Of a stretch of DNA of 64,000 bases, positions 5,840 to 62,384 are shown piece after piece (position 1 is the first letter of the stretch; every line of letters begins with the position of its first letter). The position numbers and the translations under genes were made by a program. The DNA comes from Eukaryota sp. GEM-RC1. Its lineage: Eukaryota. Where the stretch lies: NCBI GenBank assembly GCA_040285855.1, contig JAUFOQ010000018.1, positions 434,001-498,000 on the forward strand, in the 5' to 3' direction. The notes beneath the pieces are model-generated. The model made no database searches, was not told the origin of the DNA, and saw nothing but the letters and a program-made list of their open reading frames with translations.

Positions 5840-8197
5840 TAGACCTGTGCAATCCACTCAGATAGTCGACTAAGTCGACTCGTAAACGCAGTCGAGTCGA
5901 GTCGACTCAAGTCATTTATTACATCACATCAAATCACACTACATGTGGTTTATAGATATTATCTTCCATTAAATAGTTCAATAAAGAATACTGAAACAAC
6001 ACCAATTGTCTTTCGTCTTTGTGGTTAAATAATTGAGTGAAGTTACTACATGTAGTACTCAATTTTATTTACACCAATTTCTTGTTTCTCCTCTTTGAAT
6101 GTCTTTACCTCCAACAAAGACCTGCAGAATTCTAACTGTACCAGGTGAAGAGATCACCATATCTTCTGATACTGAACCAGCACCGATAGTGCTATCTCCT
6201 CGTCAAACTTTCCAGGGGCATCGTCACTTCGTTTTACAAGAAGGATGGAAAGTGTGTAAGCTCTGCTCTAACGGCACTTCTTTTGCCTTAAAAACTTCAA
6301 CGACTGTCTTACGGTCTCATCTTAACGAGAAGCATCCCAACTGGGAGGGCCACTCACAACCAACTATTAAAACTGTAGCCCCAAAGATTAGGAGGAGTAC
6401 TACTAAATACATCAACCTTATGTTGGCGAAACTTGTACTGGAAAAATCTTTGTCTTTCAGTTTTGTGAACTCAAAAGCTCTAAAAGAGCTCCTGAACTTG
6501 CTAGCTCCTGGTTATAAGGTTCCCTCTAGATGGACACTTCAACGATCTCTCCATTCTGCCTTTTTGAGAAACAAAGCTGCGATTGCTAAGAAAGTTTCGA
6601 AAATTGCTGCACAATCCTTAACCACAGACCTGTGGACATCAAGATCTCAGGTACCATTTTTAGGTGTGACTGCACACTTTGTAGAGAGTGGAGAACTCAA
6701 AAGCATGGTCCTAGATGTCAAGATGCTTCCGTTTCCACACAATGACGAAGCTATTGCAATCGCAATTAAAGAAATATTGACGGAGTTTGACATTAAGAAG
6801 GTTTTGTGTGTAACCACTGATAACGCAAGAAACATGGTTAACGCGATGGAGTCACTACTTCCTTCCACATCCTCTTATCATGGGAGATGTATGGGACATG
6901 TTCTCAACATTTGTGTCAAAGCTGGTTTGGATTGCTTACAACCCTTTATTGCCAAAATACGAGAGTTTGTTGTTGACCTTCACCGAAGTCCCAAAGTTAG
7001 ACAAGAGTTCAGTGAGTTTTGTAAACGATTAGACTTTCACATTCCTAGTGAGATTGATTTGCAAAGTGGGGATGATGGTGATAACACAGAAGGAGACAAT
7101 AGCTCACAAGAAGATGGCGACAGAAGCTCCCAAGAACTTGCTGAAGATGATAAGCTCCCTGTGATTCCAAAAGGACTGATTCCATTAGATGTCGCTATTC
7201 GTTGGAACAGTTTGTACAGAATGATAAAGAGTTATCACAATTTTGGTTCTGTCATACCTTTGTTCCTTCGAAGTGTTGATAAGAACTTTTTAGCTCTTTC
7301 TCCAGATGAGGAATCTACTCTTAATCAATGCTTAGAACTGCTTAAACCGTTCTTCGCTGTCACTGAAGCTATTTCGGGAGAATCGTACCCCACCATGAGT
7401 TTTCTTTTAGCTGCTTTAACTCATTGTCTCGCTTACCTTTTGCCGAGAGACACAGATGAAACGTTCTTGTCTGAGGCCAAGCAACAAATGAAAGCCAAGT
7501 TTGATACTTATATTCCCTTCATGTACACATTTCCTGCTTTTGTGTGTGCAATCTTAGATCCTCGGTTCAAAAACCAGGTGGTTCCCCAATTAACAAACAA
7601 TTCTGGTTATTTTGAGCAATTAAAGGAGTTAATTAAGAGCCGCAAAACCGAAAAGGGTGTTCAAGAAGTCAGCGAACCAAGACTAGTACCATTTATTCCA
7701 ATTCCAATTCCATGCGGCGACGAACTTTCTCAATACTTAAGTGATCCACTGGCCGTCATAAGTACCAATCCGGTTCTTTGGTGGCATCAAAGTAAAGGCC
7801 GATATCCAATTCTCAGTGATTTGGCTGAAGAATTTTTGTCAATTCAGGCGACCTCTTCTCAAAAACAGGTGATATAGTTTCAAGGAAGCGTTGTTCTTTG
7901 AGTGACGAAAATATTAGAGCATCTGCATGTTTGCAGTCATGGAGCATCTTTCTTGGTGATGAATTTGTGTTATAGCTACTTCAGTACTTATAGACTTTAT
8001 TTGTGATGATATACTAATAGCTTTTCTTGTTTCTTGTTATAAAAATGTCCTGGATTTTGCCCGTTTTATAGACAAATGAATTTCAATGAGTGGTCTATAG
8101 TTACTATCGTTACTCAATAGTCGACTCGAGTCGACTCAAAGCCGAGTCGAGTCGACTCAGATAAATAATTAGTCGAGTCGAGTCGTGCACAGGTCTA
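5840..8197 (+). mobile_element. hAT DNA transposon (2358 bp)
   Basis: Perfect 12-bp TIR TAGACCTGTGCA/TGCACAGGTCTA. 8-bp TSD AATTATAT (5832-5839, 8198-8205). Subterminal GTCGA(C/G) repeats. Empty site GGCAATTATATTGGT in the other array units. Confidence 0.97.
6099..7975 (+). pseudogene. hAT transposase lacking the catalytic Glu segment
   Basis: BED finger CKLC..H..KH, TTDLWTS, TTDNARNM, RCMGH, RWNS, LDPRFK, WW..YP.LS.LA. After IQATS the (S)ER motif is missing and the C-terminus FSKTGDIVSRKRCSLSDENIRASACLQSW continues in another frame to TAG at 7975. Confidence 0.9.
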
Positions 8198-37860: not shown

Positions 37861-37864
37861 GCTA

Positions 37865-38351
37865 CACTCTTCACAACAATTAGTCTGAATCAGACTAATT
37901 ATGAATGTCAATTGAAACAGTACCAAACAATAATTACTCTGATTCAGACTAAATAATGGCTGGGAAAATTAGTCTGAATCAATATCCCAAACACAAACAC
38001 TATCTTGATCATAAAATCATGTTATGTCTTCATAAATGTTATGTTGTACATCAAAATCGTTGTTGGTACCTTAAATTGAGGTGTAAGACTGAAGAAATTC
38101 AGAAGAACTGGTCGGTCATCGAATTACCTCTTCAAAATTGATTAGTGACCGAATTGTCTTTCAAGCAAGTGCCAATAATGGGTGACACAGGCTGTATATG
38201 GCAATTCAACCAAAGTGTCTAGGAAGATAAGTTTAAAAAGGGATATGTAACACAATTTTACTCAAAAATATTGGACACTCCTAAAGCGGTCAAACAATAA
38301 TAAGTCTGATTCAGACTAATAAGTGATTCAGACTAATTGTTGTGAAGAGTG
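37865..38351. mobile_element. Tc1/mariner-type MITE (487 bp)
   Basis: Perfect 28-bp TIR CACTCTTCACAACAATTAGTCTGAATCA, flanked by TA on both sides. Internal AGTCTGA(A/T)TCAGACT palindromes. Confidence 0.92.
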
Positions 38352-38823
38352 TACCTGCTTTCAAACTATCGATCTGCGAAATGCAGAGTAGAACAATAAG
38401 CATACTACTCTTCCAAAAATCAGTATCTTCACAATATCTTTTGAACTGTTGGTCACGCAATATGAACATGCAGCTTTTTTACAAAAAGCCATGGGACGAA
38501 ATAGATGGAACAAAATTTCTGATTTAAAAATACAATTGGCATCTCAACTAGAACTCGTTCTGATTGATCTCAAGGTTGTTCACATTGTAACTGGCTGTTC
38601 TATTGTCAGATTGTTTCAATCATTAAGAACAGTATCGTTCAAGAGAGCTTTGCGAGCAAAATACTCACAGATCATGTTGTATCAGGTTCCACATCAAAAA
38701 CTGTCATAAAATACATGTTCGATCAATCTAACTTACAGGAATTTGAAAGAGAAGGACAATAATCATCCTTGATAGAACTGCATAGTGCAGAATTCGTATT
38801 TGTCCCCAACGTTACAAGATTGA

Positions 38824-40207
38824 ATGAATCCATCATCTGATTTCAAACGGTTGGAGGAGCAGTCCTCAATAAGGATCCTGGGAATATTTGCTGCCCTGCT
38901 ATCTCACAGCTCCATCTTCAACTCTCTCAATGGGATTTTGATTCCTGTGTTTATCGATCTTTATTTTGATGGTAACTCACGAGCTTTAGGATTCATCACT
39001 GGTATCGGCTCCATCGTCCAAATGAGTGGGGTTGTGTCATCCCTCTTGTCTGATAGAGTTGAATTCCGTACTGGTATGTTTTATTCATCCGCTAACAATA
39101 GGAAGAAGACGCCCATTCATCTTTGCTGCTACTGTTCTGTCTTGCCTGGGAATATTTTCTCTCCTTATCGTTGAATTTCTGGACTCCGCATCTCTTCTAA
39201 CCAACCGTATCTTCATTCTTGCTGGATACTACATTGCTATGTGTGGACTTTCCATTACCTCACCCATTACGACTGCGTTTCTGGTGGATCTCATTCCCGA
39301 GTCACAAAGAGGTATGGGTAGTGGAGTGGTCAGTCTTTACGCAGTCCTTGGATCTGCGGCCGGGTTTGCCTTATTTGTGCTTGATCTTACCATGACCAAA
39401 GTATTCATTATCTACATTGTGCTGACCATCGCTGCCAATACCAGTACTCTACTTAATGCCCAGGAGACTCAATACAAACGAACTGCCGATCAGGAGCTCA
39501 GCATTACTTCCATTCTCACCCATCTCAAGTTTGATCCCAAGAAACATTTCAATTTTATACGAATCTGCTTAGTTCGCTTAATTTTCTACATCGCTTTAGG
39601 AGTCCAAAGCTATATCCAGTTCTTTCTACGTGACATGATTGGAGTGACCGATGCTCCAACATCCATGGCTGTTCTTGCTCTTTGTATGTTGGGTTTTGGA
39701 ATTTTCATTTCAATTCCGGCTGGAAAACTTTGTGATAAGCATTCCAAACAGCTTTTCATGGGTATCGGAATCTCCAGCCTTGGTATTGCCGTCATTTTAA
39801 TGATGTTTGCTTCTCAATTTTGGCATATGATAATTGTTGTATGTTTCTTCAGTACTGGTCAAATTGTCTATGGCACTGCCGAAAGTGCTTTGGCATGCAG
39901 TATTTTGCCATCTCAACGACAGTCTGGTTCCTATCTTTCTATTCTCTCCTTGCTTAATATGGTTGGTTTAAGTTTGGGGTCCGTAGTGCTAGGTAATGTG
40001 CTAAGTTTCTTCCCTGATGGTGTTCCTATTAAGGATCTTCCCCAACAGTACACTCGTCAAGGATATGTTTTTACTTGGGGAGTTGCTGTATTGTTTTTGT
40101 TGTTGTCAATTGTTGTCTTATCTGGTATGAAGATTGTATCTAAACCAAAGGTTTTAGATGTTAATATTTTAGAGTCTGAAGATGATGAGATTCCTCTCGT
40201 TTTATAG
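38824..40207 (+). CDS. MFS transporter, sucrose/H+ symporter (SUC/SLC45/GPH)-like; 2 exons (38824-39073, 39102-40207)
   Basis: Many hydrophobic TM segments. Splicing gives LSDRVEFRTGRRRPF, the family loop motif. Also DLIPESQRG and GKLCDK. Confidence 0.85.
39074..39101 (+). other. 28-nt spliceosomal intron
   Basis: GTATGTTTTATTCATCCGCTAACAATAG: GTATGT donor, GCTAAC branch site, AG acceptor. Removal restores the frame and the GRRRPF motif. Confidence 0.9.
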
Positions 40208-40771: not shown

Positions 40772-41702
40772 CTATTTTTTAAAAATTGACAATGATCCGT
40801 TATGTTCAATACTTACAAGACCATTCCTGTTCCTTGTGTGAGTAACTTTCTCAATAGCAGTTATGTGTTGACAAAGTTCTTGCAAATGTTTGCCATCTGA
40901 AACATTAAACAATTGAATAGTTCCACAAAGAGTCCCAATCGAAACGTGATTCGAATCAGCTGTAAAAGAAGATCCTAATACCAGAGCTCCAGATCGTATT
41001 TCAGGAGGAACCAGCCCTTGTGGAGGTACAGAGGGAAAAACGTGTTGAACATTGCCATTGAATGAGTCTACTAGCAAATGGTCAGATAGCTGGGTAGTTA
41101 GAAGAAGATATTTCCCATCTGGGGAAAATGACACGTCTTTAAGAGGACATCCTCGTGGATCAAGATTGTTGAAGTTTGAAAAAGGAACTGCTGGACTTCG
41201 TGAGTCAAAGAGGGATAAGTTCTTGCCAACAATAGAAGCGAAGACAAATCCTTGGAGATCATGTACAATTACAGGACTTGGACCAGGAGCCTTACCTGTG
41301 AAGCAAGGATCAGGGGTTTTGGGGTCGAACATTAGGTAGGTGGAATCTTGATAAGATGTGATGAATGTTTCGACAATAGGGTGTATTGACAAGCTAGTGG
41401 TGGGACTAGGAGTAGAGGGTTTATACGACCTTATAACGGTGTTGTCATAAGTTGATAACAACTTAATGTCGTTAGTTTTCGACGTAGTGTAGAGAACGCC
41501 TTCTTTATGTCGAGTGAAAGCAGCATTGCTAACACCAGTTGTATGGATAAACGAGTATTGTTGCAGGTCACCAGAAAGTAGACTGTATAAGGATACATTT
41601 CCAGAGGCAGTGACTGTTAGAAACAAATCTCCTGTTTCATGAACTGATAGAGAACGAATAAAACGATTTGAGGGAAGGATGAAAGGCAGTAACTCTGAAC
41701 AT
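40772..41702 (-). CDS. WDR82: WD40 protein, WDR82/Swd2-like (COMPASS/termination factor); one homopolymer frameshift
   Basis: IKLLSTYDNTVIRSY, SFSPDGKYLLLTT, LVDSFNG, SFTADSNHVSIG match WDR82. Start MFRVTAFH at 41702 joins IRSLSVHETGDLFLTV if one base of the A4 run at 41660-41663 is removed. Confidence 0.8.
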
Positions 41703-41734
41703 TTGAAACAATGAAACTACTACTGTGGATTTTC

Positions 41735-41857
41735 CAAGAAATGCATACTTTACACTTTCAAAGAAAGCTTCTTCATATACATCCCTTTTCTGCCGAAGCA
41801 CCACATTACGGCCTCCATTCAAGGTAACTTGAACTTCATCGGCCAATACATAGATAA
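41735..41857 (-). ncRNA. Candidate Fanzor omegaRNA scaffold
   Basis: Immediately 3' of the Fanzor stop codon. Hairpins: GGCC..TTCAAG-TTAC-CTTGAA..GGCC, TGC-TTCG-GCA (UUCG tetraloop), CTTTC-TTT-GAAAG. Boundaries are inferred. Confidence 0.6.
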
Positions 41858-43657
41858 TTAAGTACGTTGGAAAGCTTCAGGCCTAGTTCCAAATAAGTAA
41901 CCCTCTATAGCGATCTCAAGTTGATTTCTGGAGGCAGAAATATCTCTTGACCAAACCTGAGCACATGTTGGACATCGAAATATGGCGTGATTCACTCTTC
42001 TTACTCCATCAACTTCATGATATATCAACTGATGCCTCACTTTACAGCAGTTAGTTTTTGCGGAAGTGAAGTATTCATCGCCCATAATAACGGGAAAGAA
42101 TCTTTTGAGATATTCAAGGAATCCCTTTCTTGGAGACTTCACTTGCTGCCTAGATGGGCTAGCACCTCCTGTCCCAAACCAAACTCTGATTTGGCTTCCT
42201 TGTGCCATATTTTTCAAATTTTGAGCAAATAAATCAAATCGTTTCTGTTTTCTTATGAAGAAATCGAACTTGTTTCTCCGTAGGTTGGGTCTGTTCCCAT
42301 TTAATAAACACCGTTCTAGACTGTTCTTACTCATATTTTGATCAACAATAGTTTTCGATATCTCGAGCAGATACAGGTACATGTTCTGAACGGAATAGGT
42401 GTTCGACGTAGAGTTGCTCAAAGCACCAAACATAACAGTATTGATAGCCTTGGCTTTTGGTGCCAGTGTAATACCAGAGTCCAATAAATAGTCAGTGTTG
42501 GTTCCAATAGACCAACCACATAGGTTACTGTGGTTGGGATCAATTGCACACCATAACCAATCTTCATCAGGAGGAGGTTCGAAATCAGCTGTTCTCGCAC
42601 GTCGTCGTAACGGAGCCACTTTCTTCTGTAGGTTACACTTTCTCTTTCGAGACTTAACCTTGAAGTCTTCGGAGCCACTTGCCCTCCTTGACTCAAACTG
42701 CTCCTTGGTAGTACGGTTCCTTGTTTTTTTCGGCTTTGTGGAAAAATTATCCTCAAACTTACACCATCAGAGGCCAGGGTGTAAGTCTGGAAACGGGGGC
42801 GTTTCCTAAACGTTTTCAGTGGGTTACTTTTGAGAGTCCTTGAGAAGTTGAACTCTCTGAAGTGTTTCTCCACTTCCTGAGAGAATGATACAAACACTGG
42901 AGCATAGCTGGCCATTGGAACTAGAGCATGGCGGCGCATACAATCTGGCGCAGCATCCTCGAGAGCAGACAACAGGTTCAATCCAGCTGCGAATAGAAAT
43001 GAGGTGTTCGTTTCATTCAGGGCAACAGACCGTTCTGTCAATAGATTATTGAACAGGACAACATCCCCGACTAAGTGATTAAAGGTGGCCAGAGTTTGTT
43101 GGTGATGAGCATTCCACCATTGCTGCAGTGATGCTCCAGGTTGAGCACCACGTACGACAGCAGAAGCGTATCCCTTAGGGGTCGGGCAGTCGAGGAATAC
43201 AGCAGCGGTCCGGAAGAAGTTCAGCTTCCAACTGACTGGACCATCGGCCATCAGTTGTTGAAAAGCTTCAGACAACTGGCGTGACCTATCACTCAAGAGT
43301 TGTGAGTGACACCAGCGTGTCGGTTTGTGTCGGCCAAGAGGGGGGGAACGGCCAAATGGATACTGGCGGAAGACTCGACGACAGATGCAGTGCAGTGTAC
43401 ACTCCATTGTCGTTCTCAAAGGGGCGGTTTACTTTCGGCTCAGAGTGAGCAACGAACCCAAAGCACTGGTACCAGAAACGCTGGTCAGTCAACCAGCGTG
43501 CTAAGTGGGGGTGCTGGAGCACAAAGACCCGGGCCAGTAAAGTTGAGTGAACAGCAACGTCTCGAAGGTACCGAAATTGCCTGTTCATCACTGCCCGAGC
43601 TGGCGGGTCAAAAAACTTGGCAAGTGAACACGTGACCGTGGAGGTCGTGGTAGTCAT
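41858..43657 (-). CDS. Fanzor1 RNA-guided endonuclease (TnpB-like), ~599 aa after correcting two compensating homopolymer frameshifts
   Basis: N-terminal TVTCSL, SQLL..QL..F, SDGVSL, K/R-rich linker, RuvC-I CAIDP (D codon 42539-42541), VWFGTG, RuvC-II GDEYFTS (E 42074-42076), Cys residues NCC..CPTC, RuvC-III WSRDISASRN (D 41942-41944), C-terminal RPEAFQR. The 5' half is visibly more GC-rich than its flanks. Confidence 0.92.
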
Positions 43658-44193
43658 GTTCAAGAAATTTATGAAATATTGTGGATTTTCTTGTATTTCA
43701 ACTACATGTTACTTTCAGAAAAATATTTTACATCAATGATTAGAATCTTTTGGTAAATAGGTACAGTAGACTAGAGGTTGTTGTTCTCAGAATTGTTTGA
43801 ATGATCCCAATGGTATCGCTACAAGAATGAATAAGATTTACGATGGGTCATCTTAATCATCTTAATTCAAACTTTGACTTAGTGGCAACGTCTTTGTATA
43901 TGGTAGCTGCAGTATACAATCCCTGCTAGTGGAATTTGGGACTGACTGACTTTCTCCCCTTGACTGTGGGATGATTTTGTGGTGTTTCTCTCCTACTTTA
44001 CATTCATGAATCTCTTTCTCAACATCCTGAAATTCCTGACATCACTAACAGTGATAAAACGGACGACGACTCAAGAACACGAATGTTCTCAAAACACTAA
44101 GCAATAGTTTGTTGGTTTATTTATCATAAAAAGCTGTCGTCTGCTGTTAAAATTAAGATTATATTCAAGCAATATCTTCAAAAATAACTGGAA

Positions 44194-44869: not shown

Positions 44870-45433
44870 TAGGATTGTAATTTTGAGTCAAGCTGACTCA
44901 CTGAGCTTTGAGTCAGTCAGCTCGAGTCAGGCTCATTTGACTCATGAGTCAAGTCAAGCCTATGTTTCTATCCGTAAGTCAGCTCTACTCAAGTTTACTC
45001 TAATAAATAAAATTGAATACAATTCAAACGTATTCTATTACAATCACGTGTACATCGAATTAGTAGCTGATTTCTGTATAAATTCATTTGTCTTTCCTCA
45101 ATGTTTTCGTCAAACCCTATCATTATTGACGATGACTCCAGTAAAATTCGTTCTCCTGTTTGGAGTTCTCTGCTGCAAACCAAATTGTAACAAAGAAAGG
45201 AGCTAGACTATCTGACGATACTGCAAGGTGCTTACTGTGTTTACGTTCGTGGTACAAAACAGGTGTATTAAATTCAGATCAGTGAAAAACAGTAGGATTT
45301 GTGTTATGTTATGAAGTACAATAGAAAAAAGCATTCAAAATGAGTCAGCTCAAATCAGGTTGACTCATGAGTCAAGTCAAGCTTCAAATTGTAGGCTTGA
45401 CTCGACTTGACTCGGCTCATTTTAACAACCCTA
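44870..45433. mobile_element. Non-autonomous hAT element / MITE (564 bp)
   Basis: 8-bp TSD TCCTAGAC (44862-44869, 45434-45441). Imperfect TIR TAGGATTGT/ACAACCCTA. Subterminal TGAGTCA/TGACTCA repeat clusters. Confidence 0.9.
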
Positions 45434-49748: not shown

Positions 49749-51540
49749 TTTTTTGAATGAGTTTTTATGGAACAAAAACACTAAAATAAACACAAATACT
49801 AGAACTCAATATCATTAAAGCAACAATCATTGCCATAAAAACTCACATCAGCTTTTTTCTTCATAAAAAACACTGAGAGCTAATAGAGCTTTTGAAATCA
49901 TGATAGGAATTGTTTTAAATATTGTGAAAACAATACGATTCAACCAAAATTTGAAATCAAATTTCTTGTTCATTCTTTTTGACCACTTTCTCAAAATCAG
50001 AGAGAAAACAAAGAGCAACTCTACCAAGTCGACCATAAATTGAAATTGCAAACGGACATAATTTGTACTCAACATGTCTAATATGTTTGAGAGCAGTCAG
50101 TGGTTCATCATATTTGTTTCTCTTGTATTGTTCTGAAGAATTCAGTGGAGAAACTTCATTTTTGCATCCTTGAATGCACTTTTTTTGCAAACATCCACAG
50201 TAATCACATCAACAACGGTTAGTTCATCATTGACTGATGGAACTATGACATCAGCTTTTCTTTTACCAAAAGTCTTATCAGAATCACTATTTTTTGAATT
50301 ATTGATTTCCAATGATCTCAACAGTGGCTCAACGAAAGATTCGAATTTGTAGGACTTACACATGGCATGAATTTGATCTCTGACAGCATCATGAATACAA
50401 GTTCTATAAGTAATGAAACGATTACAACTCAAAAGGTGAGAAAAGGTAACTAATTTGCCACATTTGCATTGAAGATCATTGGGTAAATTAGAGGGCCACA
50501 AGAAACACCGAAGTCTGAATGTTGTAGTCCATTGATGATCATTCAACAACAAACCATCAATCTGTGGAATTTGGTTAATCAAAGCAACTGAAGAACTGTC
50601 CTTCAAATCGATTAAAAAATTTGCGGAAGCTGGATTTTTTTTCTTTGGCCAAGCCAAGTCGAATTTTAAAATCCAGACATTCAAAATGTTTTAAAAGGTG
50701 TTTTTGGAGTTTCTTAAGAGCAAATTTTAACGAGGTGACACATCGTTCTGGTATTTCACAAATATCTGCTGGAAAATAAGTTTGCCAGAGGTCAGGTGAA
50801 ATTAGCGACAATTCTGATCTCAAATTTACCAAGAAAAAACTACTTGTCGAAACAAGAAGATTTTCTTGACTTGGGTACCGTCTACAGAACTCAAAGACAA
50901 AATTCTTACCACCACCAATAAAAGCAGATTTGGTCCACCATTTAGACGAAGTAAAACCAATACCACCAAGATGAGGATCTGAGAAGATGTGATTGTTCAA
51001 AGCAGCAATATCCACTGATAACAAAAATGCAAGAAAGTCAGTACGAATTTTGTTAAAGCTTCTACAGAAGTTATAGGTAAGTACAGGGGCGAGAGAGTGA
51101 AGCAGATGGGTAACTTTTCCTGAATAACAAATTTTTAGCATAAAGAATTTGAGATGTTTTTCCAATTGCAATTCCTTAATTTGATCTAATTCTTTTCGCA
51201 TTGAATCCAAATATACATTCAGATCTTTAACAATGTTGTCATGTGAACCAAGATAGCAACCTAGAAATCTAAAGCTTGAAGATAAGTAGTTCACAGAGGG
51301 AACCTCTAAAGAATTAACAATTAAAGTTACAGGTACCTTGGCAATCAAAAAACATTTTTGCACATTGAATTGAAGTCCAATTGCATCGTACAAATCAGCA
51401 GCCTGATACGCAATAATACGAAGAGTTGACATAGGCGCAATACAAGAAATGTCATCCATATAAGCTACAATTTCTAAGTCTGCATGTTCTTCTTTGAGTT
51501 TTTTCAGGATTGGATGAATAGCCAAACAAAAAAAGAAGGG
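49749..51540 (-). mobile_element. 5'-truncated RLE non-LTR retrotransposon with poly(A) tail
   Basis: AYMDD, RFLG, CxC..HLLSC, IHDAVRD, RKAD, VDVITVD motifs. 14-bp TSD ATTGTGTACAAATT (49735-49748, 51541-51554). T-run on the plus strand at the 3' end. Confidence 0.9.
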
Positions 51541-57404: not shown

Positions 57405-59022
57405 ACTCGGCCACGCTGTCTCCCGAATTAATTGGTTGTTTTTATGAGAACTTAATCGGAAAACGATAATTTTATGTTATAAATTAACGAAATACAAACA
57501 ACTAGTACTTAAAAGATATTAAATGATCCACATCTACTCTTGAACTATCACGATACAATTTGTCCAGAATACGATTCAAATACTTTGGGAAACTTCTATA
57601 TAAGGAAAAAACAATGCGATTGCGCCAAATAGACTGATTAAAATTTTTCCTATGGTCACGGCACAACTTTGAAAAGGCATCAAAGAATTTTTCAGCAGCA
57701 AATCCAATATTACCAAGAATTGAAATAGCAAAAGGAATGAACTTAAAAGAAGAATACAAATTGGAATTCAGTTTGATCATTGTGTCAGAATATGTATTAT
57801 TTTTTCTTTTTTCAGCTTTGGATAAATGATTTTCAGTATCACTCGAAACTGAATTCAAATATACTTTAGCACTTAATCGGAATATTGTATTTTATTGATA
57901 TATTTTCATTCTGTTTTATCACTACTTGAAATCATTGATGGCTTTAAAACATGTAATACCTGTTGAATACGAATTATTCCCGAATAACGCTCGGCCACGC
58001 TGTCTTCCGAATTAATTGGTTGTTTTTATGAGAACTTAATCGGAATATTGTATTATATTATATTTTAACTTTGTTAGATTTCTACTTGAAATCATTGATG
58101 GCTTTAAAACATGTCAAACATGTTGAATACGAAATATGCCCGAATAACGCTCGGTCACGCTGTCTTCCGAATTAATTGGCTGTTTTTATGAGAACTTAAT
58201 CGGAATATTGTATTATATTATATTTTAATTTTGTTTGATTTCTACTTGAAATCATTGATGGCTTTAAAACATTGTAAAACATGTTGAATACGAATTATTC
58301 CCGAATAACGCTGGGCCACGCTTTCTTCCGAATTTAGTGGTTGTTTGGATGGGAACTTAATCGGAATATTGTATTATATTATATTTTAATTTTGTTTGAT
58401 TTCTACTTGAAATCATTGATGGCTTTAAAACATGTAAAACATGTTGAATACGAAATATGCCCGAATAACGCTCGGCCACGCTGTCTTCCGAATTTAGTGG
58501 TTGTTTGGATGGGAACTTAATCGGAATATTGTATTATATTATATTTTAATTTTGTTTGATTTCTACTTGAAATCATTGATGGCTTTAAAACATGTAAAAC
58601 ATGTTGAATACGAAATATGCCCGAATAACGCTCGGCCACGCTGTCTTCCGAATTAATTGGTTGTTTTTATGAGAACTTAATCGGAATATTGTATTATAGT
58701 ATATTTTAATTTTGTTTGATTTCTACTTGAAATCATTGATGGCTTTAAAACATGTAAAACATGTTGAATACGAAATATGCCCGAATAACGCTCGGCCACG
58801 CTGTCTTCCGAATTAATTGGTTGTTTTTATGAGAACTTAATCGGAATATTGTATTATATTATATTTTAATTTTGTTTGATTTCTACTTGAAATCATTGAT
58901 GGCTTTAAAACATTGTAAAACATGTTGAATACGAATTATTCCCGAATAACGCTCGGCCACGCTGTCTTCCGAATTTAGTGGTTGTTTGGATGGGAACTTA
59001 ATCGGAATATTGTTTTATATTA
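57405..59022 (-). repeat. 160/161-bp tandem array; each unit is upstream flank plus the first 15-16 nt of tRNA-Leu
   Basis: CTCGGCCACGCTGTC (rc GACAGCGTGGCCGAG) or a 1-2 mismatch variant at 57406, 57990, 58150, 58311, 58471, 58631, 58791, 58952. The first unit is interrupted by a LINE and the last is partial. Confidence 0.95.
57462..57870 (-). mobile_element. 5'-truncated RLE non-LTR insertion in the tRNA-upstream repeat
   Basis: RLE C-terminus (AEKRK, FIPFAISILG, WRNRIVF). 12-bp TSD ACTTAATCGGAA (57450-57461, 57871-57882). Empty site present in the other units. Confidence 0.9.
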
Positions 59023-59227
59023 TAATGTAACGAGATTGCAAACTACATACTACAATATGTATGTAGATACAGTAGTTTATTTTTATTTGTAGTTTATTTT
59101 TTGACTAATTATTTTTATTGACAACAACACTACTAGATAGAGCTGTCAAATGGCTAGCCTCAAGCCGTAAGCCGATGGACTTGAGAAAAGTCATATCCAA
59201 ATTTGGCTTGGCTTACTCAAATGACTC

Positions 59228-61032: not shown

Positions 61033-62384
61033 CATAGTTGCAAATCACAAATTTTTGTGATGTGATTTTGTGATGTGATTGGTGTGATGTGGAGTGAATC
61101 ACAAACACAGCGTTTGTGATGAGATTTTGTGATTTGTGATGTGATTGCATCACGTGTACTTTGTGTTGTGATGACAAACTGTAGTCCTGTACAGTTCTTC
61201 TATCCCAAGTATCTCGAATTATTCGAGGAGAAGTAGAATATGAATTGTTCTGGCCCCACTTGAAACTAATTGTTGCCGCAGTAACCCCATGGTTGAGCTT
61301 ACTGCGAATGCCCGATGAATCAGCATCTGGATTTTCTTCATTCTTTTGTGGGCATATGGAGTGACTCGATCCAAAATGGAACATTGTATTTTTTCCACAT
61401 CAAGGTCCATTAACGATGAGTATGGCCAAGAAATTTTTACCGAACACTTATGCGAGAATTGCCGAACGCAAATCTTAGACGATATTGCTAAGTTTCGACT
61501 GCACTATATTTCTTCTCCTGGACTGATTTTCTCCCGAATCCTAAATCCCTCATTACATGCGGCAAACGTCCATCTGTTTGCTGATCAAGAACGGATGCTT
61601 ATTCTCCAGCAGTACTTTGATCTCAATTTTGCTGACCATGCACAACAGCTTAAAGTAGAGTTGACTGAGTATATAGAGTCCGGTTACTCGTTTACTGATC
61701 TTGATGACATTGCTTCTCATACATGGTGGATTGCTACCGGACAATCTTCTTTTCCTTTACTCTCAAAAATTGCGCCCAGAATAACTCAAAATGCTGCCCG
61801 TGCTTCTTCCACAGAAAGGAATAGGTCTACGTTTGACCATCAGTTACCAAAACGTAGAAGCCGTCTGGGTACCGACTTACTGAATGACTCTGTGACCATT
61901 GCATTCAACTATCCACTACTCCAAAGGAAGCCTGCTGATATGACGATGAACAGAATGATTTTAGCTTTAACTGCAGCACCAGAGCAAGTGATGCTGAACG
62001 AATCATTGATTGTTCCCGTCTCCGATACTGATATCACTACAATTGACGAAGTTGATTTAGATCTCAGTATGAATGAGGAATGTATAGAGGAAGTTATTGA
62101 TGTAGATTTCGTAGAGCCTAACGAATGTCAGGGGGGACAAGTTAGAAGTTCTGCTGTTTTAGTTGAGAAAGAAGATAGTGTACTACCGCTTCCCAAACAA
62201 AATAGGGGTTTTTTTGTAATACATGTATGTATGTTTATAAAGACTTGTATTTGGTACTTTTATGTAAACTTGTGATGAAATCTATCACATAAATCACACA
62301 AATCACGTGTGATGTGATGGATGTGATGTGATTGCTGTGATGTGAGGGAATCACAAAGTAATATTTTTGTGATTTACAACTATG
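61033..62384 (+). mobile_element. Internally deleted hAT transposon (1352 bp) retaining the transposase C-terminus
   Basis: TIR CATAGTTG(C/T)AAATCACAAA. 8-bp TSD AATTTTAT (61025-61032, 62385-62392). TGTGA/TCACA subterminal repeats. ORF 61346-62275 contains WW...FPLLSKIA..ASSTERNRS...KRRSRL (hAT dimerisation domain). Confidence 0.93.

Follow-up and report, generated by a model that had tools for sequence, protein, structure and literature searches.

Introduction

Fanzors are a known and widespread kind of nuclease, and broken copies are common. Their defining feature is a RuvC-II glutamate placed beside the zinc finger, with a glycine or proline at the canonical site (PMC10711439, PMC10530073), and this moved glutamate and a DP motif are described as occurring alike in Fanzor1, Fanzor2 and the pro-Fanzors (PMC10711439). 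Because both features are common to all Fanzors, motifs leave the choice between Fanzor1 and Fanzor2 unsettled and it is structure that settles it; the solved Fanzor1 structures are those of SpuFz1 (8GKH), PpFz1 (9CF0/9CF1) and GtFz1 (9CER). A Fanzor signature has been given as D-X(125,275)-[TS][TS]-XX-C4 zinc finger-X(5,50)-RD (PMC3627910), and DPG is near exclusive to Fanzors according to Yoon et al. (PMC10711439). Fanzor1 RNAs are described as taking three-stem shapes (PMC10711439), with a first stem of 7 bp (PMC11423790). Among the elements that carry Fanzor1 genes, the MCi-2 elements of Mucor circinelloides are reported to have 11-12-bp target-site duplications and no recognisable inverted repeats (Bao and Jurka, 2013, PMC3627910).

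In this work we analysed a Fanzor1-like locus within a 64-kb stretch of DNA (the window, which here means that whole stretch). The locus belongs to this known kind of system and represents a new, divergent Fanzor1 lineage. Among the papers listed by a literature search, none joined Fanzors with metamonads or Skoliomonas, the source of the relatives described below; the supplements of the Fanzor surveys may list such loci, and a term search of supplements of the Skoliomonas genome paper found nothing.

Results

Three minus-strand coding pieces form one gene. They lie in two frames and run from an ATG (43655-43657) to a TAA (41858-41860), a distance of exactly 1800 nt. The original prediction had joined three open reading frames into one protein of about 599 amino acids (aa), and this reading is borne out by P0001, a relative of 589 aa that aligns across all three pieces in frames -1/-2/-1. 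Its frame switches fall at the G7 run (43340-43346) and near the A5 run (42742-42746), which confirms the two frameshift sites proposed from the sequence; it is 100% identical to the window over aa 1-106 and 97% over aa 296-589. As assembled, the two shifts leave no single open reading frame from ATG to stop. The original prediction had noted that the shifts cancel and had called the gene possibly intact: the length is indeed exact, but it is no evidence of intactness, as the first break is private to this copy and the second is shared.

Piece 1 (43340-43657, minus strand, as are the other two) encodes aa 1-106, that is the first WED strand and the start of REC, and is the part fully identical to aa 1-106 of P0001. 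Piece 2 (42747-43338) continues through REC and WED up to the SDG-VSLRII hairpin, whose strands are E298-303 and E307-313 in the predicted model of the relative P0040. Piece 3 (41858-42745) holds the basic loop, RuvC-I, RuvC-II, the zinc site TNCC...CPTC, RuvC-III and the stop. The predicted motifs IDPN, GDEYFTS, TNCC...CPTC, RDISASRN and RPEAF are all found there, with the catalytic residues (minus strand) at 42539-42541 (RuvC-I Asp), 42074-42076 (RuvC-II Glu) and 41942-41944 (RuvC-III Asp). This piece matches Pfam PF07282 with an E-value of 1.3e-5, slightly short of the curated cut-off. The restored second junction shows no gaps against relatives, SDGVSLRIIF.TKPKKT being aligned with SNGLSLRFTFSKKPKKT, and the K/R-rich stretch that it creates lies opposite the WED loop region of SpuFz1 in the alignment, with a basic character throughout the family.

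The gene is predicted to encode a divergent Fanzor1, which would cut DNA under RNA guidance. The original prediction had held that the motif order defines Fanzor1; this argument is not supported, as Fanzor1, Fanzor2 and pro-Fanzors all have the moved glutamate and a DP motif (PMC10711439). The identity itself is supported by structure searches of the kind that had been proposed, run with predicted models of relatives, which found the Fanzor1 fold. With the model of P0040, a whole relative (pLDDT 89; its alignment took in distant Fanzor1-like rows), Fanzor1 occupied ranks 1-7 of the fold search, with E-values from 2e-13 to 4e-9 and TM scores of 0.45-0.58. With the model of P0017 (pLDDT 72), which is 98% identical to P0001 and was built from family sequences only, Fanzor1 again took ranks 1-7, and Fanzor2 came at rank 20 with a TM score of 0.19. 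In both cases the top seven were PpFz1, SpuFz1 and GtFz1 structures, with no other solved kind among them, and the assignment is thus made through P0040 and P0017, not through the window's joined protein.

The features of the window's protein can be set against those of Fanzors. The moved RuvC-II glutamate is present (VWFGTGG and GDEYFTS), and G510 and E543 (P0040 numbering) are invariant in 22/22 aligned rows. The RuvC-I motif of the family is DPN, which active SpuFz1 likewise has (D383-P-N385); among 36 distant matches, 28 have DPG and 2 have DPN. The spacing of the D, TS and RD elements fits the published signature and four cysteines are present, but these are arranged TNCC...CPTC. At the WED hairpin, the SDG of the window is aligned with the TDG of SpuFz1 at a predicted beta turn, where the sister families have TDG, SDG, TNG or SNG. 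The Fanzor1 fold, to which both relatives' models are assigned by their search ranks, is marked by enlarged REC and WED domains and a length of about 600 aa or more. A Fanzor2 or IS607-type element would instead have a compact, TnpB-like fold and an IS607 recombinase as neighbour; Fanzor2 has fold rank 20 (TM 0.19) and the neighbouring genes are of WD40, MFS, TOM1-like and CH-domain types. Searches by sequence gave an E-value of 4e-60 for SpuFz1 vs 4e-9 for Fanzor2 with a mixed profile, in which 14/22 rows were distant unnamed or non-family matches, so that the strong SpuFz1 match is transitive. A family-only profile run against solved structures found no Fanzor and only three TnpB-type chains (E 0.035-0.13), and the last piece alone found no match among them.

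A search with the last piece found 14 proteins among 553 candidates, all from three Skoliomonas (metamonad) isolates. The cluster of P0001 comprises 8 proteins, of which 6 are nearly full length, with 96-99% identity; one of its proteins, P0015, is letter for letter the window from an ATG at 43407 minus 29 nt and was counted as the window's copy, so that the window probably comes from the same species. By sequence, the window's element is one copy of a multi-copy family in Skoliomonas proteomes. Identity to the sister families is 36-49%, and each of these counts 10 to 41 members; gene models are whole in 6/9 of those examined in one family and in 1/19 in another, P0265 is also whole and unbroken, P0009 and P0011 are further whole sisters, and partial models are many in all families. 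When a profile was run against 1.84 billion proteins, 452 matched at an E-value of 0.001 or better, the best outside Skoliomonas being near 1e-14. In a FastTree phylogeny of 49 rows with a midpoint root, which took in no named Fanzor1, Fanzor2 or TnpB references, 12/13 Skoliomonas rows fall on one long branch (support 99), with one long row outside. A DNA pattern taken from the junction and run against metagenome contigs found nothing. Among the relatives, the Fanzor part of P0012 is fused to glutaminase/ankyrin domains and that of P0152 to a repeat which the window also contains at 49839-50115, and both are probably chimeric models; P0016 has N in place of D before the catalytic E, and P0128 and P0136 represent further, more distant Fanzor families in another isolate.

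Three features of the locus had been missed by the original prediction: an 11-bp direct repeat, a folded 3' tail and a 29-nt GT...AG stretch around the second break. The direct repeat brackets what is likely a whole non-autonomous element of 1,945 bp (41735-43679, minus strand), delimited here in one copy only. The candidate target-site duplication on the gene's 5' side (43680-43690, TGTGGATTTTC on the plus strand) ends 22 nt from the ATG, and the one on the 3' side (41724-41734) directly adjoins the tail's last stem. The 11-mer has these two occurrences in 64 kb and no others; in random trials, flanks of such sizes had an 11-mer in common in 1.4% (150x100 nt) to 11% (258x643 nt) of cases, and the repeat by itself is modest evidence of an element boundary. 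The GC content is 0.457 inside the element and 0.358 and 0.376 in the flanks. The predicted lack of terminal inverted repeats holds, no inverted repeat longer than 8 nt joining the two flanks, and inverted ends were rejected on this ground; nor is there any transposase among the neighbouring open reading frames.

The 126 nt from the stop codon to the repeat (41735-41860, minus strand) are likely an omega-RNA (guide-RNA) scaffold, as judged from their predicted fold. They form three predicted stems, a 7-bp inner hairpin, a UUCG hairpin and a 13-bp terminal stem, with a z-score of -4.15 and 0/200 shuffles equally stable. The signal needs the whole stop-to-repeat stretch, as the tail did not stand out when sliding 100-nt segments were folded, and it had no match in Rfam. 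The agreement of the 7-bp inner hairpin with the first stem of Fanzor1 RNAs may be due to chance. By the Fanzor guide rule (PMC10432273), the guide would be taken from 41705-41734 (minus strand), which comprises the duplicated site and flanking host DNA ahead of a WD40 gene. This predicted guide matches the element's own left junction at 13/15 bases.

The WD40 gene (40772-41716, minus strand) lies directly downstream of the element. Its best match and its motifs point to WDR82/Swd2. Its likely ATG (41702) is 22 nt from the duplicated site and one base out of frame with the remainder, and its database model starts much later (186 aa); this reflects either a further indel or damage to the gene by the insertion. 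Elsewhere in the window, nested tandem duplications (2481-36851, about five copies of a unit of about 7 kb, 97-99.6% identity) repeat 152- and 160-aa open reading frames without a Pfam family. A hAT transposase with an open frame of 592 aa and a BED finger (6099-7877, plus strand), a second hAT fragment (61346-62275, plus strand) and weak reverse-transcriptase matches (586-1401 and 50575-51525, both minus strand) sit far from the Fanzor element. Other repeats are a MITE-like stretch at 44877-45413 with TGACTCA repeats and the palindrome TTGACTCATGAGTCAA at 44937 and 45360, a probable MITE at 37863-38353 with perfect 30-bp inverted repeats about 490 bp apart, and a tandem array with a period near 160 bp at 57868-59030.

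The two breaks differ in their distribution among the copies. At break 1, in the G7 run (43340-43346, read on the plus strand), the window has one base too many, and 6/8 spanning gene models read through in frame (P0001, P0016, P0017, P0019, P0020, P0262); P0015 has the window's shift and P0109 departs from the frame otherwise. The gene models thus point to a break that is private to the window's copy. We read it as a private error or as a recent real slip, which look alike; short-read polishing is described as leaving single-copy errors within repeats (PMC8812927). At break 2 the A5 run (42742-42746) is one base short, within a 29-nt GT...AG stretch (42734-42762, minus strand) that encodes the second strand of the WED hairpin. 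None of the 7 spanning models reads through: six skip the 29 nt as a predicted intron. The seventh, P0262, which represents another copy and belongs to the other sub-lineage, has no splice there and is shifted in the same way as the window. Break 2 is therefore seen directly in two copies and inferred in five, and the idea that it is confined to the window's copy is ruled out by P0262. The ten skipped residues are the second hairpin strand in the P0040 model and are kept in frame in the sister families; in a model built without them the hairpin disappears (pLDDT below 50 at 280-306), a result partly confounded by a shallower alignment. A -1 slip on an A7 run (A AAA AAA, 42724-42730 on the coding minus strand) would also restore the frame and keep the WED strand. 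No stable structure was found downstream of this run (z +0.5 to +0.7), and a frameshift stimulator was rejected on that basis. For comparison, an MFS gene of the host has a 28-nt intron candidate (39074-39101, plus strand), GTATGT...CTAACAATAG.

The differences among copies suggest that the protein is under constraint. Across 8 copies, 27 residues vary, and the mean conservation of their columns is 0.34 vs 0.50 (P 0.0002); this avoidance of conserved columns is found in the N half (P 0.005) and in the C half (P 0.007), is unchanged under codon-mutability weighting, and leaves 2 variable residues, vs 7.5 expected, at columns conserved in at least 70% of ten relatives. In the out-of-frame tail of P0262, 4/5 of the base changes inferred leave the protein of the RuvC frame unaltered, vs 28% expected (P 0.025). 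These counts are small and the test is noisy, as two whole control families gave a weaker signal (P 0.047 and 0.27). Because the copies' differences avoid conserved residues on either side of break 2, the protein was probably made. A sister family also has a break that appears inherited: the allele at residue 99 is found in 3/3 copies that read through (P0040, P0006, P0046) vs 0/8 others (P0004, P0045 and others), which suggests that the shared break was inherited and kept spreading, and that lineage shows some avoidance of conserved sites too (P 0.02). A shared predicted intron near residue 256 of the same family tracks this allele.

Run-length differences are frequent in the window's tandem duplicates. 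Of 29 indels in these duplicates, 26 are single bases in runs (four pairwise comparisons, in which pairs share copies); one T run reads 6, 5, 6, 5 and 5 across five copies, and runs of 5 are off-mode in 5/78 copy-runs. Given this rate and 7/7 broken models, independent errors cannot explain break 2, and if it is an error it must be systematic. AUGUSTUS can place introns to bridge frameshifts. The assemblies of the named relatives were made from nanopore reads polished with short reads (PMC11316075), and homopolymer errors are described as persisting in repeats after such polishing (PMC8812927). An error common to all copies should be corrected by short-read polishing, unless an unseen correct copy draws the reads (our deduction from PMC8812927).

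Discussion

On balance we lean towards viewing the locus as a multi-copy, likely non-autonomous 1.9-kb element with a twice-broken, divergent Fanzor1 gene, both breaks of which would most likely be homopolymer errors of assembly. For a gene under constraint that is broken in every copy, the best explanation is that one run was systematically under-called; this run would have the same context in every copy seen. The whole, unbroken gene models of the sister families count in favour of assembly errors, and the shared, apparently inherited break of one sister family counts against them. That the window's copy is intact in the cell is a more tentative proposition, to which we give somewhat less than an even chance, as it needs both breaks to be errors or to be bypassed. 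The 599-aa protein would bind an RNA made from the element's 3' tail, the last ~15 nt of which, from flanking host DNA, would serve as guide; the nuclease would cut the empty allele beside a short motif (TAM), as Fanzor1 biochemistry suggests (PMC10432273), and, by analogy with TnpB systems, repair from the filled allele would then keep or spread the element. The element itself would be moved by an enzyme encoded elsewhere.

It is unlikely, in our estimation, that this is a dead gene with two real breaks, a frameshifted founder having spread with the help of a trans-acting enzyme and its passenger copies perhaps still making guide RNA. Such a history would fit the presence of break 2 in both sub-lineages (window and P0262), the sister family in which 8 copies have an apparently inherited break and the many partial models in all families, but it leaves unexplained why differences arising among break-sharing copies avoid conserved columns on both sides of the break.

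A real shared break would have another meaning, since a frameshift fixed in a gene under constraint would suggest recoding, which was not found described for Fanzors among the entries returned by a literature search. We hold it to be distinctly unlikely that the break is a recoding switch, at which the family would obtain the full nuclease only through a -1 slip or the choice of a tiny intron at the WED hairpin, the alternative being a 412-aa REC-WED product. Such a switch would hold cutting in check in an element that has a 13/15-base match between its predicted guide and its own left junction. A more specific reading, in which break 2 is real and is bypassed by -1 ribosomal frameshifting or polymerase slippage in the A7 run 12 nt downstream, would yield a minority of 599-aa nuclease and a majority of 412-aa protein without RuvC, and we rate it as very unlikely. 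It would reconcile the shared break with the constraint on RuvC, the A AAA AAA run lies in the right frame with the WED strand retained, and P0262 corresponds to the predicted 412-aa product; against these points, no stimulatory structure follows, the residues between the two runs match relatives in the -1 frame, suggesting no adaptation, P0017 implies a shorter A run, and no sister family needs such a shift. Finally, that the 29-nt stretch has recently become a genuine intron, giving a spliced 589-aa protein that lacks one WED strand, is highly improbable: it is removed in 6/7 gene models, has a GTAAGT donor and is close in length to the 28-nt host candidate (39074-39101), but its acceptor is AAG, the CTAAC branch motif of the host candidate is absent, every sister family keeps the strand in frame in its whole models, the hairpin is lost when the strand is left out of the model (partly confounded by its shallower alignment) and the gene models come from an AUGUSTUS pipeline (PMC11316075).

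The locus adds a long-branch Fanzor1 lineage, with several multi-copy families in three metamonad proteomes where they are annotated only as hypothetical proteins. The lineage brings candidate ends, scaffold and guide, and among the sister proteins there are whole ones, about 600 aa long, that could be assayed at once.

Compared with the solved Fanzor1 proteins, the relatives have a similar overall fold. The likeness extends to a length of about 600 aa, a [TS][DN]G WED hairpin, a D-E-D triad with the moved Glu, a basic loop after the hairpin, a tail predicted to fold after the stop and a D-P-N motif like D383/N385 of SpuFz1. Unlike them, the lineage shows 10-13% identity in structural alignments, and the window has a zinc site of TNCC...CPTC rather than two CxxC, no inverted ends and, as assembled, two frameshifts. 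The moved RuvC-II glutamate and the DP motif are also those of Fanzor2 (mimivirus ApmFz2, 9B0L) and of IS607 pro-Fanzor TnpB, from which the window gene differs by the low rank of Fanzor2 in the fold search with P0017, by the weaker E-value of Fanzor2 with the mixed profile and by having no adjoining serine recombinase. As an element, it resembles MCi-2 as described (PMC3627910) in its candidate 11-bp duplication, its lack of inverted repeats and in that no mobilising enzyme has been assigned to it; in contrast with that description of MCi-2 as over 6 kb long, with variable 5' parts and a patterned duplication, the window element is 1.9 kb and consists almost entirely of the gene and its tail.
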